From NCBI RefSeq assembly GCF_055900595.2, contig NZ_CM148325.1: a DNA stretch of 64,000 bases; one strand, given 5' to 3'. Positions 1-55,312 of the stretch are shown in pieces (the stretch's first letter is position 1; each line of letters begins with the position of its first letter). Both the position numbers and the translations under genes were made by a program. The notes under the pieces were generated by a model that was given only the letters and a program-made list of their open reading frames with translations, did no database searches and had not been told where the DNA came from.

Positions 1-1203
1 GAATTTAACCGCCAGCTGTCGCTGACGGGGCATTATGCCGGAGTCACTGCCGGGCAGCTGTGGACGCTCAGTCGTGCTATTTCCGGGAATGGTATCACGC
101 AACATGCTGCAGCCGGTGCGCTGGCTCAGGTGGTGGGGAGTGGTGCATTTCGTGGAAACGATATCGGTATGGTGGCGAGAGCTGCCGCACAGATGGAGCG
201 ATCGGTTGGCCAGTCGGTCAGCGATACCATAAATCAGTTTAAGCGGCTGAAGGATGATCCTGTAAATGCCGCGAAGTCTCTGGACAATGAGCTGCATTTT
301 CTTACTGCCACTCAGCTTGAGCAGATACGCGTCCTTGGAGAGCAGGGGCGGTCCAGTGATGCGGCACGGATAGCCATGTCTGCACTGGCAGAGGAAACCG
401 GTCGGCGTACTGCGGATATTGATAATAACCTCAATGCGCTGGGCAGTACGCTGCAAACTTTGTCTGACTGGTGGAAGCAGTTCTGGGATGCGGCCATGAA
501 TATTGGTCGTGAAGATTCGCTGGATGCGCAGATTGCCACTTTGCAGGAGAAAGTGTCGCGGGCGAAAAGACTCCCCTGGACGGCATCATCTTCTCAGGTT
601 GAATACGATCAGCAGCGTCTTAACGATCTTCAGGAGAAAAAACGCCAGAAGGATTTGCAGGATGCAAAAGAGCAGGCAGAGCGGAATTATCAGGAGCAAC
701 AGAAACGCCGTAATGCTGAAAATGCTGCACTGAACCGGATGAATGAAACGGAAGCTGCACGACATCAGCGTGAAATTGCGCGTATTAATGCCATGCAGTA
801 CGCCGATCAGGCTGTCAGGGATGCGGCGATACAACGTGAAAATGAACGTTACGAGAAAGCCCTGGCATCCGGTAAGAAAAAAACACGCGAAACCCGTAAT
901 GATGAGGCCACCCGGTTATTGCTGCAGTACAGTCAGCAACAGGCACAGGTGGAAGGACAGATTGCTGCTGCCAGACAGTCAGCAGGCATTGCCACGGAAA
1001 GGATGACAGAAGCGCATAAACAGCTCCTGGCTCTGCAGCAGCGCATCAGCGACCTGGACGGGAAAAAACTGACGGCAGATGAAAAGAGTGTGCTGGCCCG
1101 TAAAGATGAACTGATTCAGGCACTGACGCTGCTGGATGTAAAACAGCAGGAGCTTCAGAAACAGACGGCACTCAACGAGCTGAAGAAAAAACAATTCAGC
1201 TGA
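1..1203 (+). CDS. phage tail tape measure protein (lambda gpH-like), 5' end outside window; reading frame ends at 1201-1203
   Basis: Frame 1 is open from base 1; translation is coiled-coil and Gln/Ala-rich like lambda H; gene order H-M-L-K-I-J follows. Confidence 0.8.
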   Translation, partial: EFNRQLSLTGHYAGVTAGQLWTLSRAISGNGITQHAAAGALAQVVGSGAFRGNDIGMVARAAAQMERSVGQSVSDTINQFKRLKDDPVNAAKSLDNELHFLTATQLEQIRVLGEQGRSSDAARIAMSALAEETGRRTADIDNNLNALGSTLQTLSDWWKQFWDAAMNIGREDSLDAQIATLQEKVSRAKRLPWTASSSQVEYDQQRLNDLQEKKRQKDLQDAKEQAERNYQEQQKRRNAENAALNRMNETEAARHQREIARINAMQYADQAVRDAAIQRENERYEKALASGKKKTRETRNDEATRLLLQYSQQQAQVEGQIAAARQSAGIATERMTEAHKQLLALQQRISDLDGKKLTADEKSVLARKDELIQALTLLDVKQQELQKQTALNELKKKQFS

Positions 1204-1265
1204 CCAGTCAACTGGCTGAAGAAGAGCGCGCTCAGCGTCAGCAACATGACCTGGATATCGCCACG

Positions 1266-2117
1266 GTGGGTATGGGTGATCAGCAGCGACAGCGATATCA
1301 GGTACAACTGAGTCTTCGCCAGAAATACCAGCAACAGCTGGAGCAGTTGAGGCGGGATAGTGAGCAGAAAGGGACATATAACACGGATGACTACAGAAAG
1401 GCCGAGCAGGCGCTGACGGAGAGCCTGAACCGACAACTGAATGAGAATCGCCGTTACTGGCAACAGCTTGAAGTTGTGCAGGGTAACTGGAAAAACGGAG
1501 TCCTGCGTGCATTTCAGGATTTTACCGTGGATGCAGATAATACGGCAGAAACAGCAGAACAGGTGTTCTCGTCAGCCTTCAGCAACATGGGAAATGGCCT
1601 GGCAACTTTTGTCACTACCGGCAAACTCAATTTCAAATCCTTCACCTCTTCTGTGCTGTCAGATATGGCGAAAATCCTGGCGCAGGCAACCATGATGAAA
1701 TCGATAAAAGGGATTGGCAGTGTACTGGGATTTGATCTCAGCAGCCTTTCCCTGAATGCCAATGGGGGGATTTATCAGTCTGCTGATTTGAGTCGTTACA
1801 GTGGCACGGTGGTTAACCGTCCGACGTTTTTTGCTTTTGCAAAAGGCGCGGGTGTGATGGGGGAAGCGGGACCTGAAGCCATTCTGCCATTGCGTCGTGG
1901 TGCTGACGGTAAGCTGGGGGTTGTGGCGGATATTGGGGGTTCAGGTATGGCGATGTTTTCCCCGCAGTACAACATCGAGATCAATAACGATGGCACGAAC
2001 GGGCAGATAGGTCCGGCTGCCCTGAAGGCGGTTTATGACCTCGGGAAAAAAGCGGCAGCGGACTTTATGCAACAGCAGGCCCGTGATGGTGGTCGGTTAA
2101 GTGGAGCATATCGGTAA
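1266..2117 (+). CDS. tape measure protein C-terminal portion (continuation of gpH in another frame)
   Basis: C-terminus INNDGTNGQIGPAALKAVYD...RDGG matches the lambda H C-terminus; frame is open from ~1110, overlapping the upstream segment, so one gene is split by a frameshift. Confidence 0.8.
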   Translation: MGMGDQQRQRYQVQLSLRQKYQQQLEQLRRDSEQKGTYNTDDYRKAEQALTESLNRQLNENRRYWQQLEVVQGNWKNGVLRAFQDFTVDADNTAETAEQVFSSAFSNMGNGLATFVTTGKLNFKSFTSSVLSDMAKILAQATMMKSIKGIGSVLGFDLSSLSLNANGGIYQSADLSRYSGTVVNRPTFFAFAKGAGVMGEAGPEAILPLRRGADGKLGVVADIGGSGMAMFSPQYNIEINNDGTNGQIGPAALKAVYDLGKKAAADFMQQQARDGGRLSGAYR

Positions 2118-2446
2118 TGGAGACGTTTCACTGGAAAGTGCGCCCGGATATGAATGTGGTATCAGAGCCGAAAGTGGTGACAGTGAAGCTGGGCGATGGT
2201 TATGAACAGCGTCGTGCGGCGGGACTGAATAACCAGTTGTCGACTTACAGCGTGACGATACGTGTTCGTAAATGTGAACACCCATCTTTAAAAGCCTTTC
2301 TGGAACGGCACGGTGGCGTCCGTGCATTTCAGTGGACGCCACCTTATGACTGGAAACCGATCAGGGTGGTTTGTCGTAAATGGTCGGCAAGCGTGGGGGC
2401 GCTGTGGGTAACCATAACGGCAGATTTTGAACAGGTCGTGGCATAG
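2117..2446 (+). CDS. M: phage minor tail protein M
   Basis: 109 aa, METFHWKVRPDMNVVSEP..., same length and sequence pattern as lambda gpM; start overlaps H stop. Confidence 0.9.
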   Translation: METFHWKVRPDMNVVSEPKVVTVKLGDGYEQRRAAGLNNQLSTYSVTIRVRKCEHPSLKAFLERHGGVRAFQWTPPYDWKPIRVVCRKWSASVGALWVTITADFEQVVA

Positions 2447-2455
2447 GAGGCTCTG

Positions 2456-3154
2456 ATGCAGGATATTCCACAGGAAACACATCATGAGACGACACGCCTC
2501 ACTCAGTCAGCCCAGGTGGTGCTCTGGGAAATCGATCTGACAGAGGTCGGTGGTGAACGTTATTTTTTCTGTAATGAGCAGAACGAAAAAGGTGAGCCGG
2601 TTACCTGGCAGGGGCGGCAGTATCAGGCATACCCCATTCAGGGGACGGGATTTGAACTGAACGGCAAGGGCAGTGCTGCCCGTCCGACACTGACGGTTTC
2701 TAACCTGCACGGAATGGTCACCGGGATGGCGGAAGACCTGCAGAGTCTGGTCGGCGGAACGGTGGTCAGGCGTAAGGTTTACGCCCGTTTTCTGGATGCG
2801 GTGAACTTCGTCAACGGAAACAGTGACGCCGATCCGGAGCAGGAGGTGATCAGCCGCTGGCGCATCGAGCAGTGCAGCGAACTGAGCGCGGTCAGTGCCT
2901 CTTTTGTACTGTCCACGCCGACGGAAACGGACGGTGCTGTTTTTCCGGGACGTATTATGCTGGCCAACACCTGCACCTGGACCTATCGCGGCGATGAGTG
3001 CGGTTATAGCGGTCCGGCGGTCGCGGATGAATATGATCAGCCGACGTCCGATATCACGAAGGATAAATGCAGCAAATGCCTGAGCGGCTGTAAGTTCCGC
3101 AATAACGTCGGCAACTTTGGCGGTTTTCTTTCCATTCACAAACTTTCGCAGTAA
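2456..3154 (+). CDS. L: phage minor tail protein L
   Basis: 232 aa, MQDIPQETHHETTRLTQS..., lambda gpL-like with C-terminal Cys cluster. Confidence 0.9.
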   Translation: MQDIPQETHHETTRLTQSAQVVLWEIDLTEVGGERYFFCNEQNEKGEPVTWQGRQYQAYPIQGTGFELNGKGSAARPTLTVSNLHGMVTGMAEDLQSLVGGTVVRRKVYARFLDAVNFVNGNSDADPEQEVISRWRIEQCSELSAVSASFVLSTPTETDGAVFPGRIMLANTCTWTYRGDECGYSGPAVADEYDQPTSDITKDKCSKCLSGCKFRNNVGNFGGFLSIHKLSQ

Positions 3155-3158
3155 TTCC

Positions 3159-3902
3159 ATGACAGAGACAGAATCAGCGATTCTGGCGCACGCCCGGCGA
3201 TGTGCGCCAGCGGAGTCGTGCGGCTTCGTGGTGAGAGCGCCGGAGGGGGAAAGATATTTCCCCTGCGTGAATATCTCCGGTGAGCCGGAGGCGTATTTCC
3301 GGATGTCGCCGGAGGACTGGCTGCAGGCAGAGATGCAGGGTGAGATTGTGGCACTGGTCCACAGTCACCCCGGTGGTCTGCCCTGGCTGAGTGAGGCCGA
3401 CCGGCGGCTGCAGGTGCAGAGTGATTTGCCGTGGTGGCTGGTTTGCCGGGGAGCGATTCACAAGTTCCGCTGTGTGCCACATCTTTCCGGGCGGCGCTTT
3501 GAGCACGGGGTGACGGACTGTTACACGCTGTTCCGGGATGCTTACCATCTGGCGGGGATTGAGATGCCGGATTTTCATCGCGAGGATGACTGGTGGCGTA
3601 ACGGTCAGAATCTCTATCTGGATAATCTGGAGGCCACAGGGCTGTATCAGGTGCCGTTGTCAGCGGCGCAGCCGGGCGATGTGCTGCTGTGCTGTTTTGG
3701 TTCATCGGTGCCGAATCATGCCGCCATTTACTGTGGTGACAGCGAGCTGCTGCACCATATTCCTGAACAACTGAGCAAACGAGAGAGGTACACCGACAAA
3801 TGGCAGCGACGCACACACTCCCTCTGGCGTCACCGGGCATGGCACGCATCTGCCTTTACGGGGATTTACAACGATTTGGCCGCCGCATCGACCTTCGAGT
3901 GA
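3159..3902 (+). CDS. K: phage tail tip assembly protein K (MPN/JAMM plus NlpC/P60 domains)
   Basis: HSHPGG JAMM motif and DCYTLF catalytic Cys region; lambda gpK-like. Lambda K is annotated from the internal Met (here 3303); 3' end overlaps I as in lambda. Confidence 0.85.
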   Translation: MTETESAILAHARRCAPAESCGFVVRAPEGERYFPCVNISGEPEAYFRMSPEDWLQAEMQGEIVALVHSHPGGLPWLSEADRRLQVQSDLPWWLVCRGAIHKFRCVPHLSGRRFEHGVTDCYTLFRDAYHLAGIEMPDFHREDDWWRNGQNLYLDNLEATGLYQVPLSAAQPGDVLLCCFGSSVPNHAAIYCGDSELLHHIPEQLSKRERYTDKWQRRTHSLWRHRAWHASAFTGIYNDLAAASTFE

Positions 3903-4447
3903 AAACGGGGTCCGAAGCCATCCGGGCGCTGGCCATGCAGATCCCGGCGTTTCGTCAGAAACTGAGCGACGGCTGGTACCAGGTACGCATTGCCGGGCGT
4001 GATGCCGGTGAAACCGAATTGTCTGCCCGTCTTAATGAGCCGCTGGCAAATGGTGCCGTGATCCACATCGTGCCGCGTCTGGCGGGAGCTAAAAGTGGCG
4101 GTGTGTTTCAGGTGGTGCTGGGGGCGGCGCTGATTGCGGTGGCATGGTGGAACCCTGTGGGCTGGCTGGGAGCCGCGGCTGTATCGGGTATGTATGCGGC
4201 AGGGGCCAGTATGATCCTGGGCGGAGTGGCGCAGATGCTGGCACCGAAAGCCAGGACGCCCACGGCAGCAAGTACAGATAACGGCAAACAGAACACCTAT
4301 TTCTCCTCACTGGATAACATGGTTGCCCAGGGCAATGTTCTGCCCGTTCTGTACGGTGAAATGCGCGTGGGGTCGCGGGTGGTCTCTCAGGAGATCAGCA
4401 CGGCAGACGAAGGGGATGGTGGTCAGGTTGTGGTGATTGGTCGCTGA
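3800..4447 (+). CDS. I: phage tail assembly protein I
   Basis: MAATHTLPLASPGMARICLYGDLQRFGRRIDLRV... near-identical to the lambda gpI N- and C-termini. Confidence 0.9.
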   Translation: MAATHTLPLASPGMARICLYGDLQRFGRRIDLRVKTGSEAIRALAMQIPAFRQKLSDGWYQVRIAGRDAGETELSARLNEPLANGAVIHIVPRLAGAKSGGVFQVVLGAALIAVAWWNPVGWLGAAAVSGMYAAGASMILGGVAQMLAPKARTPTAASTDNGKQNTYFSSLDNMVAQGNVLPVLYGEMRVGSRVVSQEISTADEGDGGQVVVIGR

Positions 4448-4507
4448 TGAAAAACGTTTTATGTGAAACCGCCTCCGGGCGGTTTTGTCGTTTATGGAGC
4501 GTTAGGA

Positions 4508-7500
4508 ATGGGTAAAGGCAGCAGTAAGGGGCATACTCCGCGCGAAGCGAAGGACAACCTGAAGTCCACGCAGTTGCTGAGTGTGATCGATGCCATCAGC
4601 GAAGGGCCGGTTGAAGGTCCGGTAGATGGATTAAAAAGCGTGCTGCTGAACAGTACGCCAGTGCTGGACATTGAGGGGAATACCAACATCTCCGGCGTCA
4701 CGGTGGTGTTCCGGGCCGGTGAGCAGGAGCAAACACCGCCGGAGGGATTTGAATCCTCCGGCTCCGAGACGGTGCTGGGTACGGAAGTGAAATACGACAC
4801 GCCGATCACCCGGACCATCACGTCGGCAAACATTGACCGACTGCGTTTTACCTTCGGCGTGCAGGCACTGGTGGAAACCACCTCAAAGGGGGACAGGAAT
4901 CCGTCGGAAGTCCGCCTGCTGGTTCAGATACAACGTAACGGTGGCTGGGTGACGGAAAAAGACATCACCATTAAAGGCAAAACCACCTCACAGTATCTGG
5001 CCTCGGTGGTGGTGGGTAACCTGCCGCCGCGCCCGTTCAATATCCGGATGCGCAGGATGACGCCGGACAGCACCACAGACCAACTGCAGAACAAAACGCT
5101 CTGGTCGTCATACACCGAAATCATCGATGTGAAACAGTGCTACCCGAACACGGCACTGGTTGGCGTGCAGGTGGACTCGGAGCAGTTCGGCAGCCAGCAG
5201 GTGAGCCGTAATTATCATCTTCGCGGGCGCATTCTGCAGGTGCCGTCGAACTATAACCCGCAGACGCGGCAATACAGCGGTATCTGGGACGGAACGTTAA
5301 AACCGGCATACAGCAACAACATGGCCTGGTGTCTGTGGGATATGCTGACCCACCCGCGCTACGGCATGGGGAAACGTCTTGGTGCGGCAGATGTGGATAA
5401 ATGGGCGCTGTATGTCATCGGCCAGAATTGCGACCAGTCGGTGCCGGACGGCTTTGGCGGTACGGAGCCGCGCATCACCTGTAACGCTTACCTGACCACA
5501 CAACGTAAGGCGTGGGATGTGCTCAGTGATTTCTGCTCGGCGATGCGCTGTATGCCGGTATGGAGCGGGCAGACGCTGACGTTCGTGCAGGACCGACCGT
5601 CGGATAAGGTGTGGACCTATAACCGCAGTAATGTGGTGATGCCGGATGATGGCGCGCCGTTCCGCTACAGCTTCAGCGCCCTGAAAGACCGCCATAATGC
5701 CGTTGAGGTGAACTGGATTGACCCGGATAACGGCTGGGAGACGGCAACAGAGCTTGTGGAGGACTCGCAGGCCATTGCCCGTTACGGTCGTAACGTCACG
5801 AAGATGGATGCCTTTGGCTGTACCAGCCGGGGGCAGGCACACCGCGCCGGGCTGTGGCTGATTAAAACGGAGCTGCTGGAAACGCAGACGGTGGACTTCA
5901 GCGTGGGTGCCGAAGGGCTTCGCCATGTGCCGGGCGATGTTATTGAAATCTGCGATGATGACTATGCCGGTATCAGCATCGGTGGTCGCGTGCTGGCGGT
6001 GAACAGCCAGACCCGGACGCTGACGCTCGACCGTGAAATCACGCTGCCATCCTCCGGCACCACGCTGATAAGCCTGGTTGACGGTGAGGGTAATCCGGTC
6101 AGCGTGGAGGTCCAGTCCGTCACCGACGGCGTGAAGGTGAAAGTGAGCCGTGTTCCTGACGGCGTTGCTGAATACAGCGTGTGGGGGCTGAAGTTGCCGA
6201 CGTTGCGCCAGCGCCTGTTCCGCTGCGTGAGTATCCGTGAGAACGACGACGGCACGTATGCCATCACTGCCGTGCAGCATGTACCGGAGAAAGAGGCCAT
6301 CGTGGATAACGGGGCGCACTTTGACGGTGACCAGAGCGGCACGGTGAATGGTGTCACGCCGCCAGCAGTGCAGCACCTGACCGCAGAAGTCACTGCAGAC
6401 AGCGGGGAATATCAGGTGCTGGCGCGATGGGACACACCGAAGGTGGTGAAGGGCGTGAGCTTCCTGCTTCGCCTGACCGTGGCAGCGGATGACGGCAGTG
6501 AGCGGCTGGTCAGCACGGCCCGGACGACGGAAACCACTTACCGCTTCACACAACTGGCTCTGGGGAACTACAGGCTGACAGTCCGGGCAGTAAATGCGTG
6601 GGGGCAGCAGGGCGATCCGGCGTCGGTATCGTTCCGGATTGCCGCACCGGCAGCGCCGTCGCGGATTGAGCTGACGCCGGGCTATTTTCAGATAACCGCC
6701 ACGCCGCATCTTGCGGTTTATGATCCGACGGTACAGTTTGAGGTCTGGTTCTCGGAAAAACGGATTGCTGATATCAGGCAGGTTGAAACCAGCGCGCGTT
6801 ATCTTGGTACGGCGCTGTACTGGATAGCCGCCAGTATCAATATCAAACCGGGTCGTGATTATTACTTTTATATCCGCAGTGTGAACACCGTCGGCAAATC
6901 GGCATTCGTGGAGGCTGTTGGTCGGGCGAGCGATGATGCGGAAGGTTACCTGGATTTTTTCAAAGGCCAGATAACCGAATCCCATCTCGGCAAGGAGCTG
7001 CTGGAAAAAGTCGAGCTGACGGAGGATAACGCCAGCAGACTGGAGGAGTTTTCGAAAGAGTGGAAGGACGCCAGTGATAAGTGGAATGCCATGTGGGGCG
7101 TCAAAATTGAGCAGACCAAAGACGGCAAACATTATGTCGCGGGTATTGGCCTCAGTATGGAGGATACAGAGGAAGGCAAACTGAGTCAGTTTCTGGTTGC
7201 CGCCAATCGTATCGCGTTTATTGACCCGGCAAACGGGAATGAAACGCCGATGTTTGTGGCGCAGGGCAACCAGATATTCATGAACGACGTGTTCCTGAAA
7301 CGCCTGACGGCCCCCACCATTACCAGCGGCGGTAATCCTCCGGCATTTTCCCTGACACCGGATGGGCGGCTGACGGCGAAAAATGCCGATATCAGCGGTA
7401 ACGTGAATGCGAACTCCGGGACGCTCAACAACGTCACGATTAACGAGAACTGTCGGGTTCTGGGAAAACTGTCCGCGAACCAGATTGAAGGCGATCTCGT

Positions 7501-7903
7501 TAAAACAGTGGGCAAAGCTTTCCCCCGGGACTCCCGTGCACCGGAGCGGTGGCCATCAGGGACCATTACCGTCAGGGTTTATGACGATCAGCCGTTTGAC
7601 CGGCAGATTGTTATTCCGGCGGTGGCATTCAGCGGCGCTAAACATGAGAGAGAGCATACTGATATTTACTCCTCATGCCGTCTGATAGTGCGGAAAAACG
7701 GTGCTGAAATTTATAACCGTACCGCGCTGGATAATACGCTGATTTACAGTGGCGTTATTGATATGCCTGCCGGTCACGGTCACATGACGCTGGAGTTTTC
7801 GGTGTCAGCATGGCTGGTAAATGACTGGTATCCCACAGCAAGTATCAGCGATTTGCTGGTTGTGGTGATGAAGAAAGCCACCGCAGGCATCAGTATCAGC
7901 TGA
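4508..7903 (+). CDS. J: phage tail tip host-specificity protein J
   Basis: 1131 aa starting [24 protein letters not shown], collinear with lambda gpJ throughout; the ORF track start at 4463 is an upstream extension. Confidence 0.95.
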
Positions 7904-7921
7904 ATTTTATAACCCATATAC

Positions 7922-7946
7922 GGGCGCCAGAAATGGCGCCTTTTTT
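7922..7946 (+). terminator. rho-independent terminator after J
   Basis: GGCGCC-agaaat-GGCGCC stem followed by TTTTTT. Confidence 0.7.
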
Positions 7947-7970
7947 ATTGCAGAAAAGCGAGAGGTAATT

Positions 7971-8570
7971 ATGCGTAAAGTTTGTGCAGCCATTTTGTCC
8001 GCAGCCATCTGTCTGTCCGTATCCGGTGCGCCTGCATGGGCATCTGAACATCAGTCCACGCTGAGCGCGGGGTATCTTCATGCCTCGACGAACGTTCCCG
8101 GCAGCGATGATCTTAACGGGATTAACATGAAATACCGTTATGAGTTTACGGACACACTGGGGCTGGTGACGTCATTCAGCTATGCAGGAGACAAGAATCG
8201 CCAGCTTACCCGTTACAGCAATACCCGCTGGCATGAAGATTCCGTGCGTAACCGCTGGTTCAGCGTGATGGTGGGGCCGTCTGTGCGCGTGAATGAATGG
8301 TTCAGCGCGTATGCGATGGCGGGTATGGCTTACAGCCGTGTGTCGACTTTTTCCGGGGATTATCTCCGCGTAACTGACAATAAGGGGAAAACGCACGATG
8401 TGCTGACCGGAAGTGATGACGGTCGCCACAGCAACACGTCTCTGGCGTGGGGAGCTGGCGTGCAGTTTAACCCGACCGAATCCGTGGCCATTGATATTGC
8501 TTATGAAGGCTCCGGCAGTGGTGACTGGCGCACTGACGGTTTCATCGTGGGTGTCGGTTATAAATTCTGA
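7971..8570 (+). CDS. lom: outer membrane protein Lom (Ail/Lom family, prophage-encoded)
   Basis: 199 aa with signal peptide [24 protein letters not shown] and beta-barrel pattern ending ...GVGYKF, as in lambda Lom. Confidence 0.9.
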
Positions 8571-8597
8571 TTAGCCAGGTAACACAGTGTTATGACA

Positions 8598-8622
8598 GCC
8601 CGCCGGTTCAGGCGGGCTTTTT
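8598..8622 (+). terminator. rho-independent terminator after lom
   Basis: GCCCGCC-ggttca-GGCGGGC stem followed by TTTTT. Confidence 0.75.
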
Positions 8623-9330
8623 GTGCACAGAAAACCCCCAGCTAGGCTGGGGGTTCCGGAAAGCTTTCAGCTTTGAGCCAGTTATTAAAACCCCTTTTGA
8701 TTTGTTAAAACACCTTGCGGTCTGGCAACTGCAAGTGTCAAACAAGAAATCAAAAGGGGGTCCCAATGGGGGACGAAAAGAGCTTAGCGCACACCCGCTG
8801 GAACTGTAAATATCACATAGTTTTTGCGCCGAAATACCGAAGACTGGCGTTTTACGGAGAGAAGCGTAGGGCGATAGGCAGTATTTTGAGAAAGCTGTGT
8901 GAGTGGAAAAGCGTACGGATTCTGGAAGCAGAGTGCTGCGCAGATCATATCCATATGCTTGTGGAAATCCCACCCAAAATGAGCGTATCCGGCTTTATGG
9001 GATATCTGAAAGGGAAAAGCAGTCTGATGCTTTACGAGCAGTTTGGGGATTTGAAATTCAAATACAGAAACAGGGAGTTCTGGTGCCGAGGGTACTATGT
9101 CGATACGGTGGGTAAGAACACGGCGAAGATACAGGACTACATAAAGCACCAGCTTGAAGAGGATAAAATGGGGGAGCAGTTATCGATTCCATATCCGGGC
9201 AGCCCGTTTACGGGCCGTAAGTAACGAAGTTGAATGCAAATGTCAGATCGTATGCGCCTGTTAGGGCGCGGCTGGTAACAGAGCCTTACAGGCGCATTTG
9301 AAAAACCTCCGGCTATGCCGGAGGATATTT
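8623..9330 (+). mobile_element. IS200 insertion sequence (IS200/IS605 family); ends approximate
   Basis: Contains a tnpA matching IS200 Y1 transposase; left-end hairpin CCCCCAGC-tagg-CTGGGGG upstream of tnpA; ~0.7 kb, the expected IS200 size. Confidence 0.8.
8766..9224 (+). CDS. tnpA: IS200 transposase TnpA (HUH/Y1)
   Basis: 152 aa MGDEKSLAHTRWNCKYHIVFAPKYRR...HIHMLVEIPPK, the HUH motif and IS200 TnpA signature. Confidence 0.95.
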   Translation: MGDEKSLAHTRWNCKYHIVFAPKYRRLAFYGEKRRAIGSILRKLCEWKSVRILEAECCADHIHMLVEIPPKMSVSGFMGYLKGKSSLMLYEQFGDLKFKYRNREFWCRGYYVDTVGKNTAKIQDYIKHQLEEDKMGEQLSIPYPGSPFTGRK

Positions 9331-9345
9331 ATTTGTGGAGTGGAT

Positions 9346-11751
9346 ATGGCAGCAGTAAAAATCTCAGGTGTGCTGAAAGATGGTGCGGGAAAACCAATAC
9401 AGAACTGCACTATTCAACTGAAGGCAAAGCGTAACAGCACCACGGTACTGGTGAACACGGTGGCTTCTGAAAATCCGGATGAAGCCGGACGTTACAGCAT
9501 GGATGTTGAGTATGGCCAGTACAGCGTCACCCTGCTGGTTGAAGGTTTTCCGCCTTCACATGCCGGGACCATTACCGTCTATGAAGGCTCCAGACCAGGT
9601 ACGCTGAATGATTTTCTCGGTGCCATGACGGAAGATGATGTCATGCCGGAGGCATTGCGTCGTTTTGAGGCAATGGTGGAAGAAGTGGCACGCAACGCCG
9701 AAGCCGCCTCTCAGAGCGCAGCGGCGGCAAAGAAATCCGAAACTGCAGCGGCATCATCAAAGAACGCGGCGAAAACCTCAGAAACGAATGCAGCTAATAG
9801 TGCACAGGCGGCAGCGACCTCAAAGACTGCATCGGCAAACTCCGCGACAGCAGCCAAAAAATCAGAAACCAACGCGAAAAATAGCGAGACAGCCGCAAAG
9901 ACGAGCGAAACCAACGCAAAGTCCAGCCAGACGGCAGCGAAAACCAGCGAAACGAATGCCAAAGCCAGTGAAACTGCGGCAAAAAACAGCCAGGTTGCAG
10001 CAGCCCAAAGCGAGAGCGCGGCAGCCGGTTCTGCGACTTCAGCAGCTGGATCAGCAACTGCTGCGGCTAACAGCCAGAAAGCTGCGAAGACGAGTGAAAC
10101 TAACGCAAAGTCCAGCCAGACGGCAGCGAAGACCAGCGAAACGAATGCCAAAACCAGCGAAACTGCGGCGAAAAACAGTCAGGATGCAGCAGCCCAAAGC
10201 GAGAGTGCTGCAGCTGGTTCTGCAAGCGCGGCGGCTGCTTCTGCCACTGCATCAGCTAACAGTCAAAAAGCAGCAAAAACCAGTGAAACCAACGCAAAGG
10301 CGAGCGAGACTGCGGCGGCGAACTCGGCGCAAGCATCGGCAGCAAGCCAGACAGCAGCTAAAGCAAGTGAAGACGCAGCCAGAGAGTATGCAAGCCAGGC
10401 AGCGGAGCCGTATAAACAAGTTTTGCAGCCGTTGCCCGATGTGTGGATACCGTTTAATGATTCACTGGATATGATTACGGGCTTTTCGCCATCATATAAA
10501 AAAATTGTTATTGGCGACGATGAAATAACAATGCCTGGCGACAAGATTGTAAAGTTTAAACGCGCATCGAAAGCAACTTACATTAATAAATCTGGTGTGC
10601 TGACAGAGGCTGCCATTGACGAGCCACGATTTGAACGTGATGGCCTGCTTATTGAGGGGCAAAGAACTAACCTGCTAATCAATTCAACAAATCCGACTAA
10701 ATGGAACAAGTCGTCAAATATGATCTTAAGTGCATCAGGTGTAGATGATTTCGGATTCCAGTACGCAAAATTTACATTAAAACCAGAAATGGTAGGGCAA
10801 ATTTCAGCGATTAACATAGTAACCGTTTCCGGCAGTAAAGGTTTTGATGTAACAGGCGGAGAAAAGTATGTAACCATATCATGCAGGGTGCAAAGTGGCA
10901 CTCCAAATTTAAGATGCCGATTACGATTTGAAAACTATGATGGTTCTACCTACACATTCTTAGGTGACGCTTACTTAAATACGACAGATTTATCTATTGA
11001 TAAGACGGGTGGTGCCGCTAATCGCATTACTGCAAGGGCTGTTAAAGATGAAGCAAGCAAATGGATCTTTTTTGAGGCGACAATTAAGGCACTTGATACA
11101 GAAAATATGATAGGTGGAATGGTTCAGTATGCCCCGGCAAAAGGAGTGGGCACTGGCGCGGATGATTATATTTATATTGCGACCCCTCAAGTTGAAGGTG
11201 GGGCGTGCGCTTCATCGTTTATTATAACAGGCGCATCCCCTGTAACACGCGCCAGCGATATTGTGACGGTCCCCATTTCTCTAAATTGGTGCAATCCCGC
11301 TATTAGTTCATTAGCAGAAGTTAATACCAATTGGGATGAATCGCCAAACAAAGAAGGTAGCGCACGTATTCTTAATATTTCCACTACGGGAGATACAACT
11401 GAAATTGCAGATGAAAGTTATATGTATTTGGGGTATACATCTTTGGGAGCACGCGCAATCATTACAAATGGTAAAGGCACTAAAATAGAATATAAAAGCG
11501 TTATAGAACGACCAGAGAGAAAAAGCATTATCGGCTTTAGATTCACAGAAAGTCGAGAATTGTGTGTTGTGGTTAACGGTAATATTGGTGCTAAGGTAGT
11601 TTCTCCTTATAAAAAACACAAATATACAGGAGGCTTCATTAATATTGGTGGTCAATCATCATCCGGCAACCGTCACCTATTTGGACACGTTCGAAATCTG
11701 CGTATTTGGCACAAGGCATTGACTGATGCTCAGATGGGGGAGTCAATCTAA
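9346..11751 (+). CDS. stf: side tail fiber protein (lambda Stf-like N-terminus, Ala/Ser/Thr-rich repeat shaft, divergent AT-rich C-terminal domain)
   Basis: N-terminus MAAVKISGVLKDGAGKPIQNCTIQLKA... matches lambda Stf; shaft has repeated KTSETNAK units; C-terminus ends GHVRNLRIWHKALTDAQM, resembling a LamG/concanavalin-like fold. Confidence 0.85.
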   Translation: MAAVKISGVLKDGAGKPIQNCTIQLKAKRNSTTVLVNTVASENPDEAGRYSMDVEYGQYSVTLLVEGFPPSHAGTITVYEGSRPGTLNDFLGAMTEDDVMPEALRRFEAMVEEVARNAEAASQSAAAAKKSETAAASSKNAAKTSETNAANSAQAAATSKTASANSATAAKKSETNAKNSETAAKTSETNAKSSQTAAKTSETNAKASETAAKNSQVAAAQSESAAAGSATSAAGSATAAANSQKAAKTSETNAKSSQTAAKTSETNAKTSETAAKNSQDAAAQSESAAAGSASAAAASATASANSQKAAKTSETNAKASETAAANSAQASAASQTAAKASEDAAREYASQAAEPYKQVLQPLPDVWIPFNDSLDMITGFSPSYKKIVIGDDEITMPGDKIVKFKRASKATYINKSGVLTEAAIDEPRFERDGLLIEGQRTNLLINSTNPTKWNKSSNMILSASGVDDFGFQYAKFTLKPEMVGQISAINIVTVSGSKGFDVTGGEKYVTISCRVQSGTPNLRCRLRFENYDGSTYTFLGDAYLNTTDLSIDKTGGAANRITARAVKDEASKWIFFEATIKALDTENMIGGMVQYAPAKGVGTGADDYIYIATPQVEGGACASSFIITGASPVTRASDIVTVPISLNWCNPAISSLAEVNTNWDESPNKEGSARILNISTTGDTTEIADESYMYLGYTSLGARAIITNGKGTKIEYKSVIERPERKSIIGFRFTESRELCVVVNGNIGAKVVSPYKKHKYTGGFINIGGQSSSGNRHLFGHVRNLRIWHKALTDAQMGESI
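9860..10330 (+). repeat. tandem imperfect coding repeats (~186-bp units) in the tail fiber shaft
   Basis: Protein repeats SQKAAKTSETNAKSSQTAAKTSETNAK(A/T)SETAAKNSQ...AAAQSESAAAGSA occur at least twice, nearly identical. Confidence 0.7.
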
Positions 11752-12032
11752 TGAAAGATTTAACACTCAAATTTGCCGACAGGGCCGACTTTTCGGCTTT
11801 TATGGGAAGTATTGGCTATTATAATGACGAGTCGATGCAGGATGATATTCTGATTGATGTGATAGGTAACGTGTACAAAGAAACCGGAGAGCTGACTGAA
11901 GATGGCGAACCGGTATGTGTTAAGGAAGATGGATATTTTGTAAACGTGCGCATCATTAAGGATACGCAAATATCGTCATTATTCGATGAATACGCGGTTG
12001 CTGTTGAGCATCAACTTCGTGGCTGGATGTGA
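11751..12032 (+). CDS. hypothetical protein (93 aa) immediately downstream of tail fiber; possible fiber assembly/accessory protein
   Basis: ATG overlaps the stf stop (TAATG); acidic 93-aa product; same low-GC block as the fiber C-terminus. Confidence 0.5.
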   Translation: MKDLTLKFADRADFSAFMGSIGYYNDESMQDDILIDVIGNVYKETGELTEDGEPVCVKEDGYFVNVRIIKDTQISSLFDEYAVAVEHQLRGWM

Positions 12033-12041
12033 GGTAGAGAA

Positions 12042-12746
12042 ATGGCTACATCAACAGTAATTCCGGGAGACATCACCACGCTGAAGGGAGATGTTAGTAA
12101 AGCAAAGGAAGATATTTCCTCTATTAACGGAAAAGTATCAACGCTTCAGACTGATATGGCCAGTGCAAAGCAGGATATCAGCACCAGATACACAAAAACT
12201 GAAGTTGATAATAAGCTGAAAAACAAAGTGGAAGTGAACGATCTGGAAAGTGGTCGTTATGGCGGAGATTTTTACCCGCTGACTGGCCGTGAAGCGTTTT
12301 ATTTATGGGGATTGGGCACAACTACAGCGGCGGCAAATCTTTATCTTAATCCTGACCCTGCAATTTCGTCTGTGCTGCGGTCAACATCGTCTATCCGCTA
12401 TAAACATTCAGTAGAGACGATAGATTCAGAGCACGCCGATCTCATTTTCAGGATGCGCCCTGTGTGGTACAGGTCGCAATGCGAAAATGACAGGCGTGAC
12501 TGGGGATTCTATGGATTGATTGCCGAGGAAGTTGGAGAAATTGCCCCTCAGTTTGTTCACTGGCGACCAGCCAACGAAGATGATGCACCGGAAACCATTT
12601 CCAGCAATGGCCTTGTTGCCGAAGGTGTAATGTACGAACGTCTGGTTGTTCCACTGATTCACCATATCCAGAAGCTGACTGAAAGAGTTGATGAACTTGA
12701 GTCAGAATTAAAGTTGTTATCCGTTTCCCGAAGCGATATCGGATAA
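12042..12746 (+). CDS. coiled-coil protein with C-terminal intramolecular-chaperone (peptidase S74-like) domain; tail-fiber-related
   Basis: N-terminal heptad-like coiled coil; C-terminal SSIRYKHSVETID...LIFRMRPVWYR...GFYGLIAEEV resembles the self-cleaving chaperone domain of endosialidase-type fibers. Confidence 0.6.
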   Translation: MATSTVIPGDITTLKGDVSKAKEDISSINGKVSTLQTDMASAKQDISTRYTKTEVDNKLKNKVEVNDLESGRYGGDFYPLTGREAFYLWGLGTTTAAANLYLNPDPAISSVLRSTSSIRYKHSVETIDSEHADLIFRMRPVWYRSQCENDRRDWGFYGLIAEEVGEIAPQFVHWRPANEDDAPETISSNGLVAEGVMYERLVVPLIHHIQKLTERVDELESELKLLSVSRSDIG

Positions 12747-12756
12747 AGGAGGCGTA

Positions 12757-13050
12757 ATGGATATAACACCTTTCCTTCATGCACTTTGTGCTGTGGCTGC
12801 GCAGGTACTGGTTGGTCTTTTTACCGGAAACTGGGCTTACGGGGCGATAGCTGGTTGTACGTTCTTCATTGCGCGTGAACATACCCAGGCAGAATATCGC
12901 TGGATTGAAATGTTCGGGCATGGCAAGCGTATGAATATGCCGTGGTGGGGCGGTTTTGATCCGCGTGCGTGGGATGTGGCAAGCCTGATGGATTTTGCTG
13001 TGCCGGTGGTGGCGTGTCTGCTGGTCTGGCTGTTGGTTAATCGTGGGTGA
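12757..13050 (+). CDS. small membrane protein (97 aa, two predicted TM segments), function unknown
   Basis: Hydrophobic N- and C-terminal segments; RBS AAGGAGG upstream; tightly packed after the preceding ORF. Confidence 0.5.
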   Translation: MDITPFLHALCAVAAQVLVGLFTGNWAYGAIAGCTFFIAREHTQAEYRWIEMFGHGKRMNMPWWGGFDPRAWDVASLMDFAVPVVACLLVWLLVNRG

Positions 13051-13060
13051 AAAAAGGTGA

Positions 13061-13180
13061 GCTGTATATGCAACGGAGGAAGAAACCTCGTTGCGGGAAG
13101 CCTTGAAGAAGTATCGGGTGTTGCTGAACCGTGTTGATACGTCAACTGCACAGGATATTGAATGGCCAGCACTGCCGTAG
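13061..13180 (+). pseudogene. tfa: tail fiber assembly protein (Tfa) 3' remnant
   Basis: Translates to [36 protein letters not shown], the conserved Tfa C-terminus (as in K-12 TfaQ/TfaR), with no upstream coding part. Confidence 0.75.
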
Positions 13181-13277
13181 GGTAAAACATATAAATTCTA
13201 TAATTAGATGTATCTTTCCATTTACGGCAAGGAAGGGGGCTTGGAAGACGTAAGGCATCTCACACCGAGATTATTTT

Positions 13278-13868
13278 TTATATGTCAGGTGTCTGAAGTT
13301 TTGCTTTGGCTCTTAAAATGGTTTGCCGCGAGGTTTTGAATTCCCGGGCAATGGCACTTATACTTACACCTGACTTAATCCGTTCGAATACCACCTGTTT
13401 CTGTTCTTCATTTAACACAGGTGGTCGACCAAAACGTTTCCCTGCGCCCCGGGCTCTTACTATCCCGGAATGAGTGCGTTCAAGTAAAAGGTCTCGTTCA
13501 AATTCAGCGACTGCTGAAATTACTTGCATCATCATTTTTCCTGTTGGACTGGTCAGGTCAATGCCCCCCAATGCTAAGCAATGCACTCTGATACCTGTTT
13601 CGGTCAGTTGTTCCACTGTTTTCCTGATATCCATTGCATTACAACCAAGGCGATCCAGTTTTGTCACAATCAATTGATCACCACATTTCAGGCGAGCAAG
13701 CAACCGGTTAAAACCAGGACGCTCACTGGTTGCTGCTGAGCCGCTAATGTGTTCTTCGATTATTTGCTGAGGTTTGATTTTAAAACCTGCACTTTCGATT
13801 TCCCGGCGTTGATTTTCGGTGGTCTGATCCAGCGTTGATATCCGACAGTAAGCAAAAATTCGAGACAT
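13278..13868 (-). CDS. pin: serine recombinase / DNA invertase (PinQ/PinR-like)
   Basis: 196 aa [29 protein letters not shown]... resolvase/invertase fold with catalytic Ser and C-terminal HTH; position next to tfa and ydfK matches K-12 pinQ. Confidence 0.9.
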
Positions 13869-14184
13869 AGTGAGACTCTATACGAAATTGGTGTTCATAT
13901 CATAATGCATCTCAGAAAATAATTTTGATTATTTTTGTGCATGTTTGTATGTACACGTTCGAAAATAAACGAATGCGTATGCAACCCCGTAATTTTGGTG
14001 AGACCCAAAATCGATTTTGTGAAAAATGGCTTTAACTCGGTTTGTTTTTCGAGTTCCGGGCGGACTCAAGGAAGAAGAATAGTGTTGCGTGTTATTTTAA
14101 CCAGATTTCAAGTTGTTTGGTCGTGGAAAAGTGGAGCAAAATGTTGTTAAAGTGGAAAAATGATAAAAAAGTAAGTTTATTATA

Positions 14185-14418
14185 TTACATTTTACCATTT
14201 AAATTTTGGTTGTCTTTAAGAACTGATATCGCTGTTTGTAATAATTCTTTGTTATCCAGCCATGATTTTTTCTTTATGTTTCCTTCAATGTAATCAAGCA
14301 ATGTTCTGGTATTGATAGGTCTTCCCTGTTTTGCTACTTCCACTACAGCATCCCCTAGGATAATTCTGACTTCAGGAAGCTGCGCAGGGAACCACTTTAG
14401 GGTGTCTTTTGATTTCAT
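14185..14418 (-). CDS. ydfK: YdfK/YnaE family prophage protein (cold-shock-induced, DUF1737-like)
   Basis: MKSKDTLKWFPAQLPEVRIILGDAVVEVAKQGRPINTRTLLDYIEGNIKKKSWLDNKELL... matches K-12 YdfK; RBS AAGGA upstream of this start, so the longer ORF-track start at 14451 is rejected. Confidence 0.8.
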   Translation of the reverse strand: MKSKDTLKWFPAQLPEVRIILGDAVVEVAKQGRPINTRTLLDYIEGNIKKKSWLDNKELLQTAISVLKDNQNLNGKM

Positions 14419-15203
14419 GAATATATTCCTTAAAATATTATTGATTTTCATTGCGATATTGTATGTCTGATTCAGGATATGTTGACTTATACATCGGTTT
14501 TGTCTGGGTTATTGGATATGCCAATCCCTAATTTTATTAGAGCATGACTAAAAATGCTGAATATGATAAGGAGCGAAGTGATTATCAGTATGCTGTTCAT
14601 ATAGCCTCGAATTATTAATGTGTTATATATGATATAGTTGACAATTTTTATCCTGGGTGTTCTTAAAGTTCGTAGATAAACATTGTCGTTTCAGGTATAC
14701 AGGAATGCTAACAGATGGCGGCAAAAATCAGGCGGTTTATGGCGCAAGCTGAAGTGGCAACTGCAAACTATCTTATGCAGAGACTCTACACGGATTGGGT
14801 TTAAAAGTATACATAGATAACAGTTTTTATCTGAAGAAGAAAAATATCAAGGTGATATAGCCTATATGCCTTTGATGCGGAGGAATGAATGTGATGGGAG
14901 TGATGTATCTGAATAGTTGAAAAACCGCAGACACGCCTTATGCAAGAACGTGCTGCGGTTGGCTGGTAAATTTTTCGATAGTGCGAGTATTGAATGATTT
15001 CCAGCCGTTATTGATTTTACGCGTAACTCCATGAAAAAACTACTTATCTGTTGAGGAGTTTTTTTGGGGCATATATGGGACAGAAATAGGCCCCAGATAG
15101 ACACTGAGATCGAACTTAGGATGCTTTTTAAAAAATGCAACTATCTGAAAAAACCTAGAAAACGCCAAGGAAACCACAGGATGGGAAAAAACACCTGTGA
15201 ATC

Positions 15204-49406: not shown

Positions 49407-49891
49407 GAGTATTGGTATTCTTATTTCCCTTCTTTAGAGCTGGCTTGTTAAATGCCAGCTTGCAGATTCATCGTTCCATCACCAGTACTATATTCAAGGG
49501 AAAATTGCTATTTTTCTTAAAGCATTAAGCATAACCCTTATTTTATAGCGAATATTCCTAAAGGCATTAATGGATGAAAAAGGGTTTTAATAAACTTCTG
49601 TTTTTAGCAATTAGTGCTATTCTTTGTTAAATATGATGATGATAATCTTCTTATTGAAAGAAACAGTTTTCTTATTAAGCAACAATAACTCATGGTTCAT
49701 TTTTAAATAAAATAAGAACTATGCAATTTTTAATCTATCGATTCGAAAGTATTAGCAAATTAGCCAAATTGACACCTTCCCACCTCCAACCAACACTCAA
49801 TACAGACCTCTGACAACTTAATAAGTTTCATTTTTAACGTCTGATGACTCATCTCTTTCGTGGCTGTATTGTTTGTATATGGAGCGTTTAT

Positions 49892-52800
49892 ATGAATAGA
49901 ATCTATCGCGTGATATGGAATTGCACCCTACAGGTATTTCAGGCCTGCTCGGAATTAACTCGCAGGGTAGGTAAAACATCAACGGTTAATTTGCGTAAAT
50001 CCTCTGGATTGACAACGAAATTCAGTAGATTGACGCTGGGTGTTTTGCTGGCACTAAGCGGTTCAGCGTCTGGTGCGAGTCTGGAAGTTGATAATGGTCA
50101 GATTACCAATATTAATACTGATGTTGCTTACGATGCCTACCTGGTTGGGTGGTATGGCACTGGAGTGCTTAATATTTTGGCTGGCGGTAATGCCTCCTTA
50201 ACCACTATTACTACCAGCGTCATTGGTGGTAATGAGGACTCAGAGGGCACCGTTAACGTTTTGGGTGGCACCTGGCGATTGTATGATAGCGGAAATAATG
50301 CAAGGCCTTTAAATGTGGGTCAATCCGGAACGGGGACGCTGAATATTAAACAGAAGGGTCACGTTGACGGAGGATATTTAAGGATAGGTTCTTCGACAGG
50401 AGGCGTCGGGACGGTCAATGTTGAAGGAGAGGACTCGGTTCTGACGACCGAATTATTCGAAATAGGGAGTTACGGTACAGGCTCATTAAATATTACGGAT
50501 AAGGGTTACGTCACGAGTTCAATAGTCGCCATTGTAGGATATCAGGCGAACAGTAATGGTAAGGTTGTCGTTGAAAAGGGTGGCGAGTGGCTAATAAAAA
50601 ATAATGATTCCTCAATTGAATTTCAAATTGGTAATCAAGGGACGGGCGAAGCAACTATTCGCGATGGGGGGCTAATTACGGCTGAAAATACGATTATCGG
50701 TGGCAACCTCACCGGTATCGGAACCCTGAATGTGCAGGATCAAGACTCTGTCATCACGGTACGCAGACTCTATAATGGATATTTCGGTAATGGCACAGTC
50801 AATATTTCCAATAATGGACTGATTAATAATAAAGAATATTCATTGGTGGGCGTTCAGGACGGGTCCCACGGTGTCGTCAACGTGACCGATAAAGGGCATT
50901 GGAATTTCCTCGGAACGGGCGAAGCTTTCCGCTATATCTATATCGGTGATGCTGGCGACGGTGAACTTAATGTCTCGAGTGAAGGCAAAGTAGATTCGGG
51001 AATTATCACTGCGGGGATGAAAGAAACAGGCACAGGCAACATTACTGTTAAGGATAAGAACTCCGTTATCACTAATCTCGGAACTAATCTTGGTTATGAC
51101 GGCCACGGCGAAATGAATATCAGTAATGAGGGGGTTGTTGTCAGCAACGGAGGAAGCTCACTCGGTTATGGAGAAACCGGCGTCGGGAAGGTTAGCATCA
51201 CCACGGGGGGGATGTGGGAGGTCAATAAGAATGTCTATACCACTATTGGTGTTGCGGGCGTCGGAAACCTCAATATCAGCGATGGCGGTAAGTTCGTATC
51301 GCAAAATATTACTTTTTTGGGCGATAAAGCAAGCGGTATCGGCACACTGAACCTGATGGATGCGACATCATCGTTCGATACTGTAGGTATCAATATCGGT
51401 AATTTTGGTAGCGGCATCGTAAATGTCAGTAATGGTGCCACCCTTAATTCAACGGGCTATGGATTTATCGGAGGAAATGCCTCCGGTAAGGGGATAGTTA
51501 ATATTTCAACGGATAGTCTCTGGAATTTAAAAACGTCATCTACTAACGCCCAATTGCTACAGGTCGGTGTATTAGGCACGGGTGAACTGAATATTACCAC
51601 CGGAGGTATAGTTAAAGCGCGTGATACACAGATAGCTCTCAATGACAAAAGTAAGGGCGACGTGCGGGTGGATGGGCAGAACTCTCTTCTTGAAACATTC
51701 AATATGAACGTAGGGACGACTGGCACAGGTACGTTAACCCTGACGAATAACGGCACGCTGAATGTCGAAGGTGGAGAAGTTTACTTAGGTGTTTTTGAGC
51801 CTGCTGTAGGAACGCTAAACATTGGTGCTGCCCACGGTGAGGCTGCGGCAGATGCCGGGTTTATCACCAATGCGACGAAGGTGGAGTTCGGTCTTGGCGA
51901 AGGCGTTTTTGTCTTTAATCACACCAATAACAGCGATGCCGGTTACCAGGTCGACATGCTGATTACAGGTGACGATAAAGACGGAAGAGTGATGCATGAT
52001 GCAGGCCATACTGTGTTCAATGCAGGGAATACTTATAGCGGTAAAACGCTGGTCAATGACGGCCTCCTGACTATTGCGTCACATACGGCAGATGGGGTAA
52101 CAGGCATGGGTTCGAGTGAAGTAACCATTGCAAGCCCCGGTACGCTCGACATTCTCGCATCAACGAACAGCGCAGGAGATTACACGCTGACCAATGCGCT
52201 CAAAGGCGATGGCTTGATGCGAGTGCAGCTGTCATCCTCCGACAAAATGTTTGGCTTTACCCATGCAACAGGAACTGAATTCGCCGGTGTTGCCCAACTG
52301 AAAGACAGTACCTTCACACTGGAACGCGACAACACCGCTGCGCTTACTCACGCGATGCTTCAGTCTGACAGTGAAAATACCACATCGGTAAAAGTGGGAG
52401 AGCAATCCATTGGTGGACTAGCCATGAATGGCGGTACGCTCACTTTCGATACGGATATACCTGCTGCGACGCTTGCGGAGGGATATATCAGCGTCGATAC
52501 ACTGGTTGTCGGCGCGGGTGACTACACCTGGAAAGGCCGTAACTATCAGGTAAACGGGACGGGCGACGTGCTTATCGACGTGCCTAAACCGTGGAATGAT
52601 CCCATGGCGAATAACCCTCTGACTACGCTCAATTTGCTGGAACACGATGATAGCCATGTCGGCGTTCAACTGGTGAAGGCGCAAACGGTTATTGGGTCGG
52701 GTGGCTCATTAACGTTACGTGATTTACAGGGTGACGAGGTGGAAGCGGACAAAACGTTACACATTGCACAAAACGGAACAGTGGTCGCCGAGGGTGATTA

Positions 52801-55312: not shown

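Follow-up and report, generated by a model that had tools for sequence, protein, structure and literature searches.

The DNA analyzed here is a stretch of 64,000 nucleotides (nt) from contig NZ_CM148325.1 of the RefSeq assembly GCF_055900595.2, referred to below as the window, and its element of interest is a long open reading frame (ORF) located between lsrK and hipB. It is very probable that this ORF, which forms a complete coding sequence (CDS) of 1806 amino acids (aa) plus a TAA stop codon at 49892..55312 (+), is an intact allele of YneO, a chromosomal Escherichia coli autotransporter also named ECSE_1600, that its product is a classical (type Va) autotransporter and that the passenger of this protein is most likely adhesive. 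In this regard, the NCBIfam model NF011422 ("ECSE_1600 family autotransporter") matches the protein with 4142.7 bits against a curated cut-off of 2335, and the alignment runs end to end, from residue 1 to 1806 of the protein and from position 1 to 1806 of the 1806 profile positions, which places the protein within this family. The exact protein is also public, as WP_032303043.1, BDI51001.1 and other entries under the title 'MULTISPECIES: ECSE_1600 family autotransporter [Escherichia]', and occurs on 219 contigs. Public 1806-aa proteins form two clusters at 90% identity, comprising 5726 and 18868 member sequences, and the window protein is 97-98% identical to both large clusters and of equal length (1806 aa); the intact state is common to thousands of sequenced isolates. 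The gene is already catalogued, as the family model, the SE11 genome paper and the exact protein all predate this analysis.

A six-frame scan returned window positions 49844..55312 (+) as a single open frame of 1822 aa, and a start at 49892 gives 1806 codons and TAA, uninterrupted to 55312, with the C-terminal end GVKYSW. One uninterrupted ORF at 49892-55312 had been proposed in a preliminary description of this DNA, and both the coordinates and the open frame are confirmed. Translation from 49892 opens with MNRIYRVIWN, the motif of the extended signal peptide region (ESPR), and the Pfam ESPR and NCBIfam models both align from residue 1; moreover, a Shine-Dalgarno sequence GGAG (49881..49884, +), read directly, lies 7 nt before the ATG, and RefSeq annotates the same start in strain E200086, in which the gene is 100% identical (WP_032303043.1). 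The upstream extension of 16 codons (49844-49891, MTHLFRGCIVCIWSVY) falls outside the ESPR alignment and lacks a ribosome-binding site of its own, and is a by-product of the fact that no in-frame stop codon occurs there. It might be argued that the open frame is an artefact of assembly or sequencing that hides a frameshift, as the preliminary description had itself considered, but this is hardly conceivable: no hidden frameshift was found, an independent complete genome carries the same DNA with 100% identity, 11 other sampled strains carry intact 5421-nt genes of equal length, and since the identical 1806-aa protein is found on 219 public contigs the open frame is no artefact of one assembly.

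The gene is preceded by lsrR and lsrK and followed by hipB and hipA, with the divergent lsrACDBFG operon beyond lsrR, in agreement with the earlier placement next to hipBA and the lsr operon. The order lsrR, lsrK, autotransporter gene, hipB, hipA is shared by the window, K-12 and 22 sampled strains, which marks this as the orthologous position, and the gene is indeed the orthologue of K-12 yneO (b4696, formerly ydeK/ydeU) at the same locus. SE11 ECSE_1600 and K-12 yneO represent the same gene, at the same locus and with the same length of 1806 aa, and it is from strain SE11 that NCBI derived the family name ECSE_1600. In MG1655, yneO is annotated as a pseudogene of 5422 nt in the same position; its synonyms are orfT, ydeK, ydeU, b1509 and b1510, and it carries the name 'AIDA-I family autotransporter YneO' (PMC10782963). 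The preliminary description had held that K-12 retains only fragments of this gene, a claim that was contradicted when the comparison with K-12 was run, as the full 5.4-kb gene is present and carries a single extra G (G7 to G8). K-12 differs from the window by 178 substitutions and one inserted G within a G-run at CDS nt 3955. At this site, which in the window is a run of six G followed by A (53846..53851, +), the sequence is CCT GGGGGG A CACTG in the window and CCT GGGGGGGG CACTG, with eight G, in K-12, while the other intact alleles have seven. When the extra G is removed, the K-12 gene contains no stop codon and shows 41 aa differences from the window, and this repaired allele is only 2 nt (1 aa) apart from an intact allele of a swine isolate. 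Because the repaired copy is open and lies 2 nt from a wild allele, K-12 possesses the whole gene with a very recent single frameshift. Older annotations split K-12 yneO into two ORFs.

The modular organization of the protein is that of a type Va autotransporter, i.e. a Sec signal peptide of the ESPR-extended kind, a beta-helical passenger with a C-terminal autochaperone (evidenced by AC_1, the AlphaFold2 model and folds in the PDB) and a barrel that ends in an aromatic residue. The extended signal peptide spans aa 1 to ~61 (49892..50074, +) and comprises the ESPR, a basic n-region, the h-region LTLGVLLAL and an A-S-G motif; Pfam ESPR covers residues 1-47 (E 3.6e-14), in line with what had been proposed earlier, while the hydrophobic core and the A-S-G motif at residues 47-61 were read from the sequence. 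Following the -3/-1 rule, cleavage would be expected near residues 60-62. The N-terminal passenger module (aa ~62-650; 50075..51841, +), delimited by TIGR04393 matches, motif spacing and the AlphaFold2 model, consists of ~22 coils of ~25 aa that carry GxGxLNI... motifs. The TIGR04393 repeat of NCBIfam (T5SS/PEP-CTERM-associated repeat) is matched in nine stretches of this module, and the motifs are spaced by 24-26 or 49-57 aa, which corresponds to the ~22 coils of ~25 residues across residues 89 to ~650; in the AlphaFold2 model the module appears as short strands in threes with a predicted local distance difference test (pLDDT) score mostly above 90.

The C-terminal passenger module (aa ~651-1331; 51842..53884, +), defined by matches to a representative sequence library, the AlphaFold2 model and Foldseek, is the part that is widely common to very large autotransporters. 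An exhaustive search of representative sequences returned 3383 matches, most of them to positions ~640-1191 of the passenger query (protein aa ~700-1250) with 33-48% identity, and a PATR repeat was noted at residues 1253-1281, below the Pfam cut-off. The passenger, of ~1270 residues, contains no cysteine. An AlphaFold2 model of residues 60-1250, built with a 44-sequence alignment from the representative search, is nearly pure beta with short strands (mean pLDDT 91.4, predicted template modelling score 0.73) and includes a stretch of unusually long strands at model residues ~800-1000. This confident model (pLDDT 91.4) backs the long beta-helical passenger that had been predicted from the sequence. 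DNA repeats prone to recombination were also considered for the passenger and ruled out, none of note being found at 18 nt or longer; in the DNA, the repeats of the protein are degenerate.

The autochaperone occupies aa 1332-1438 (53885..54205, +), as indicated by Pfam AC_1 (8e-26) and by the IcsA autochaperone structure 3ML3 (5e-17), and a Pfam Pertactin match at residues 1335-1452 (4e-10) overlaps AC_1. It is followed by a Pro/Ser-rich spacer and a linker helix (aa 1439-1524, including ...NIAAANSLFSHRLHDRLGE...; 54206..54463, +), assigned from composition and lying within the region that aligns with 4MEE, and this helix is predicted to sit in the barrel pore. The beta-barrel translocator itself extends over aa 1525-1806 (54464..55309, +) and ends in YSW. 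PF03797 (autotransporter beta-domain) matches residues 1525-1784 (3.4e-41, profile positions 1-254 of 255), TIGR01414 matches the barrel region (5e-123) and 4MEE, the AIDA-I translocator, matches residues 1345-1806 (1.8e-87), so the C-terminal barrel ending in Trp that had been described earlier is present, and the absence of a barrel domain, which would have spoken against the proposal, was not observed. By homology, the barrel would comprise 12 strands. The only solved relatives detected by sequence are 4MEE and the IcsA autochaperone fragments 3ML3 and 5KE1. Nine nt past the stop codon, a consensus scan indicates a GC-rich hairpin of 12 bp (55321..55348, +) that is terminator-like with a weak T tail.

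The preliminary description had further called the product 'AIDA-like', a term that stands for residues ~1298-1806, i.e. autochaperone and barrel, and fails for the passenger. The autochaperone, linker and barrel are homologous to those of AIDA-I (4MEE, 1.8e-87) and the type Va secretion route is alike. On the other hand, the AIDA-I model NF033176 yields 355.8 bits against a cut-off of 1200 and aligns only protein residues 1298-1805 with profile positions 801-1286, and the passenger is unalike, being built of TIGR04393 units of ~25/50 aa, whereas the repeats of AIDA-I are 19 aa long. Neither the cut-off score nor an adjacent heptosyltransferase gene supports membership in AIDA-I sensu stricto: no glycosyltransferase gene of the aah/tibC type is annotated within 6 kb, and the neighbours are lsrK and hipB. 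Similar relationships apply to Salmonella MisL (464 bits, cut-off 1297) and ShdA (227, cut-off 2249) and to E. coli YfaL/EhaC (205, cut-off 1459), for which residues ~1320-1806 aligned; their translocation units are related while their passengers did not align, and the protein belongs to none of these equivalog families.

With respect to the passenger, the best structural matches to the model are Ag43 and TibA, which like the modelled passenger form a three-faced right-handed beta-helix. Foldseek against the PDB ranked Ag43 passengers (4KH3, 7KOH, 7KO9, 7KOB) and TibA (4Q1Q) at the top, with E-values from 4e-6 to 1e-4, followed by other autotransporter beta-helices, and the matches to SPATE proteases (EspC, Hbp, Pet, EspP) were far weaker (E>0.01). 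Sequence identity with Ag43 and TibA is 11-14%, and TM-scores on the query are low (0.12-0.20) because the window passenger is more than twice as long; as judged from the model, the passenger resembles Ag43 and TibA in fold only. No protease or lipase domain was found by Pfam at E<=0.01, no catalytic domain by Pfam or NCBIfam, and no Peptidase_S6 match by Pfam at E<=0.01, which sets the protein apart from the SPATEs. Because no enzyme domain is present and the fold is closest to that of the self-associating adhesins Ag43 and TibA, the passenger is most likely involved in adhesion, aggregation or biofilm formation. It is unlikely that the passenger serves instead in IcsA-like actin-based motility or in serum resistance, or that it acts as a toxin or an enzyme: the sole solved matches by sequence on the passenger side are indeed the IcsA fragments (3ML3, 5KE1), and the long-strand segment at model residues ~800-1000 may represent a sub-domain, but the IcsA matches are limited to residues 1180-1456, the autochaperone region common to the whole family, and both the lack of a catalytic domain and the ranking of Ag43 and TibA far above the SPATEs speak against such a role.

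The secretion steps of type Va proteins, i.e. Sec-dependent export, insertion by the beta-barrel assembly machinery (BAM), C-to-N translocation and vectorial folding, are established for the autotransporter family, and by homology the same mechanism should apply here, with every required module being present. In such a scenario, the ESPR signal peptide would direct slow, Sec-dependent export, the C-terminal ~280 residues would be inserted by BAM as a beta-barrel with the linker helix in its pore, and the cysteine-free passenger of ~1270 residues would be threaded out with its C-terminus first; folding on the autochaperone would then give a long right-handed beta-helix, either kept on the surface or shed.

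The distribution of the gene was assessed by megablast against 5426 complete E. coli genomes, of which 3952 contain at least 80% of the locus. Sequences at least 99% identical are restricted to 14 of 5343 records, indicating that the window allele belongs to a minority clade. From the near-full-length matches, an evenly spaced sample was taken and each copy aligned to the window, which gave 25 classifiable copies, 11 with intact 5421-nt genes and 14 disrupted by at least nine different lesions; three of the 14 disrupted calls (the IS2 insertion, one K-12 derivative and EDL933) were reached by deduction and not by inspection. Intact copies are common in this sample, contrary to the rarity that the preliminary description had implied. 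As some homopolymer differences may be assembly errors and complete-genome sets over-represent K-12 and O157, the intact fraction (~40-50% of carriers) is a rough figure. The lesions include the change from G7 to G8 at nt 3955 in K-12 and losses of G at nt 4656 (two related strains), of G at nt 3387 and of T within the T6 run at nt 1422. The G7 run at nt 1314 has gained a G in two related strains, one of which is also truncated beside an insertion sequence (IS) fragment, and two strains show changes around nt 3831-3834. O157:H7 has 8 bp (AATCGGCG) duplicated at CDS nt 3984, and the list is completed by the IS2 insertion and by one strain with three 1-bp deletions. In O157:H7 the downstream hipBA is damaged too, with hipB missing and hipA lacking its N-terminus. 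The 2008 genome paper on SE11 reported that ECSE_1600, the founding member of the family, is an intact 1806-aa autotransporter with a pertactin motif; in a table of the same paper, MG1655, E24377A and O157 Sakai have disrupted copies, HS possesses the gene and the B2 strains CFT073, UTI89 and 536 lack it (PMC2608844). In the B2 strain Nissle 1917, at the counterpart of window ~40.6-55.5 kb, tam adjoins hipB, and a single block comprising lsrGFBDCA, lsrR, lsrK and the autotransporter gene is gone, so that 122 bp remain of the spacer that precedes hipB; this arrangement indicates that B2 strains lost the lsr operon and the autotransporter gene together.

The occurrence of several lesions in homopolymeric runs raises the question of whether this is a phase-variable contingency gene, in which poly-G tracts are evolved switches and the pseudogenes represent OFF phases. 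Such a notion could draw on K-12 having G8 where other intact alleles have G7, on the slippage-prone G7 run at CDS nt 1314-1320 (51205..51211, +), which is G8 and frameshifted in two related strains, and on the strain with a deletion in the T6 run. It is nevertheless very improbable, as lesions occur at no fewer than nine sites, among them the 8-bp duplication, IS2, a truncation linked to an IS and deletions that do not fall in runs. In the window, moreover, an A interrupts the K-12 site (G6 then A), and some of the homopolymer differences may be long-read assembly errors. Runs of six or more G number four, versus 3.0 +/- 1.6 in codon-shuffled controls, i.e. they are not enriched, and this together with the scattered lesions argues against an evolved switch, so that a phase-variation switch at the K-12 poly-G tract was rejected. 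With regard to length variation, a recurrent allele of 1589 aa, with an in-frame loss of residues 953-1169, was seen in 11 listed clusters, one of them on 41 contigs; with its signal peptide and barrel retained, this form may be a true variant of reduced length. Antigenic length variation was also considered for in-frame deletion forms of 1450-1715 aa and set aside, as these are nearly all singletons with scattered breakpoints and many stem from automated assemblies.

The ratio of nonsynonymous to synonymous substitution rates (dN/dS, Nei-Gojobori) between the window allele and seven other intact alleles is 0.10-0.11, alike for the passenger and for the autochaperone and barrel, so the intact alleles are, on this estimate, under purifying selection. 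The gene shows ~3.3% DNA divergence from K-12, and as lsrR, lsrK, hipB and hipA are equally diverged (96.8-97.6% identical), this divergence is a matter of lineage and does not single out the gene; the equal divergence of the flanks and the dN/dS of ~0.1 ruled out that the 96% identity to most E. coli stems from unusual divergence or from diversifying selection. Orthologues in Pseudocitrobacter are exactly 1806 aa long, share 85-87% identity and are likewise followed by hipB and hipA. Their locus differs in that bluF-bluR (BLUF-EAL and MerR-like) lies upstream with no lsrK there, a small Pmp3 gene precedes hipB, and hipA is truncated. As the 1806-aa orthologue in Pseudocitrobacter precedes pmp3-hipB-hipA, the linkage between the autotransporter and hipBA is kept across genera, and the 1806-aa orthologues together with the dN/dS of ~0.1 indicate that the protein is functionally constrained where kept, though often lost.

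Information on regulation comes mainly from work in other strains. The spacer between lsrK and the gene measures 529 bp and has a GC content of 40%. Chromatin immunoprecipitation sequencing (ChIP-seq) of MarA in the enterotoxigenic E. coli (ETEC) strain H10407 assigned the site gcactaattgctaaa to a peak at ETEC1580/yneO (PMC5684230, Table 1), and the ETEC1580/yneO fragment bound purified MarA at 0.3 uM, the lowest of the concentrations tested (PMC5684230). For the ycgF(bluF)-ycgZ spacer of ETEC, the same ChIP-seq table includes a high-affinity marbox of almost the same sequence (gcactaattgcaaaa) (PMC5684230). The 15-mer of ETEC H10407 is identical in the window and in K-12, and in the window this marbox (GCACTAATTGCTAAA, 49603..49617, -) ends 274 nt upstream of the ATG; across 15 loci it is exact in 13 and has one mismatch in the other two, at constant distance. 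MarA would thus be expected to bind this site in the window strain, in which marRAB is located ~21 kb from the gene, inside the window. Genomic SELEX (systematic evolution of ligands by exponential enrichment) in K-12 assigned to yneO a constitutive promoter CTGACA-17-TTTAAT with an H-NS flag (PMC3946193), and a sigma-S peak was reported between ydeK and lsrK by the same approach (PMC5493296). A sigma-70 promoter CTGACA-17 nt-TTTAAC is proposed at 49810..49838 (+), with hexamers taken from the SELEX peak (PMC3946193) and not from a mapped transcription start site. Given an upstream region that is AT-rich and associated with H-NS, the gene is probably expressed at a low level in laboratory culture, and MarA possibly raises this level; taken together, the data from other strains suggest that the gene is silenced and possibly responds to MarA. 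Neither a leader nor a small RNA was detected by Rfam across 44-64 kb.

Several observations weigh against an expressed and adhesive product in this strain. The last base of the -10 hexamer is changed from T to C (TTTAAC) uniquely in the window among 15 loci, the other 14 strains having TTTAAT, and a simple promoter scan found no good sigma-70 promoter in the lsrK-gene spacer and did not return the proposed one, so that the window allele may be poorly transcribed. In the searchable literature, no expression, adhesion or functional study was found under any of the names of the protein, so that it is fold and family analogy from which the term 'adhesin' derives. Finally, as about half of the full-length copies are inactivated and B2 strains are without the gene, it is dispensable in many niches. 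These points connect with an account to which appreciable, though minority, weight is given, namely that the gene is intact but cryptic, being transcriptionally silent here through H-NS and the weakened -10, possibly at an early stage of the decay seen in other lineages; under most conditions it would then be of no consequence to the strain. This account agrees with the interpretation favoured here on the nature of the encoded product and disputes solely the earlier proposal that the strain probably expresses it. It is consistent with the H-NS flag at the K-12 yneO promoter, the low GC content (0.40) of the spacer, the substitution in the -10, the absence of a spacer promoter passing the scan and the 14 of 25 sampled copies elsewhere that are already dead. 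On the other hand, the dN/dS of ~0.1 relative to intact alleles argues that this lineage has produced the protein and kept it under selection, the MarA site, which is of high affinity, is conserved, RNA polymerase binds within the spacer according to SELEX, and the promoter that carries the substitution is a proposed one and not a mapped transcription start site.

Outside this locus, strain E200086 is the closest to the window except for positions 1-15063, with an identity of 99.9-100% only in the autotransporter gene and its near flanks. Window 1-15063 corresponds to the tail end of a lambdoid prophage, comprising a J tip-attachment protein (4463-7903), a tail fibre (9298-11751) and, on the minus strand, a serine invertase (Resolvase and HTH_7; 13278-13868), the latter suggesting that the tail fibre is under an invertible switch; the prophage adjoins a 5'-truncated ydfJ, the site that Qin occupies in K-12. 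At the counterpart of this region, E200086 harbours an unrelated, different prophage with contractile-tail (sheath, tube, baseplate) genes. Downstream of hipA, window 57200-63900 is a rare island that replaces the K-12 yneL/ydeT/ydeS fimbrial remnant and of which at least 80% is present in 6 of 5426 complete E. coli genomes. The island encodes a 145-aa ORF with no family match, a lone gene for an Xre/MbcA/ParS antitoxin C-terminal domain at 57807-58001 (-), for which no partner toxin gene can be recognised in the vicinity, a leucine-rich-repeat protein of 508 aa at 58951-60477 (-), whose repeat region resembles the type III effectors SspH2/SlrP in a match confined to that region and far below cut-offs, and, as its last gene, an ankyrin-repeat protein of 657 aa at 61170-63143 (+). 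GC content is 0.52-0.57 around 58.5-60 kb, where the profile ends (at 60 kb), versus 0.42-0.43 just upstream.

In conclusion, the analysis corrects a detail of annotation, in that K-12 yneO is one base away from a working gene and not a set of fragments, and the strain studied here exceeds K-12 by one potentially functional surface protein. Beyond annotation the significance is small, as this is the intact form of an ordinary E. coli gene that was already catalogued. The only aspect of mild interest is that a gene with a high-affinity MarA site is under purifying selection and is also frequently inactivated in independent events. A speculative and rather unlikely extension is that the gene encodes a MarA-inducible, H-NS-silenced adhesin that is conserved where kept and yet repeatedly knocked out, under niche-dependent antagonistic selection. 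If true, the protein would be a stress- or antibiotic-responsive adhesin, and its linkage to hipBA across genera would hint at a joint module for persistence and attachment.

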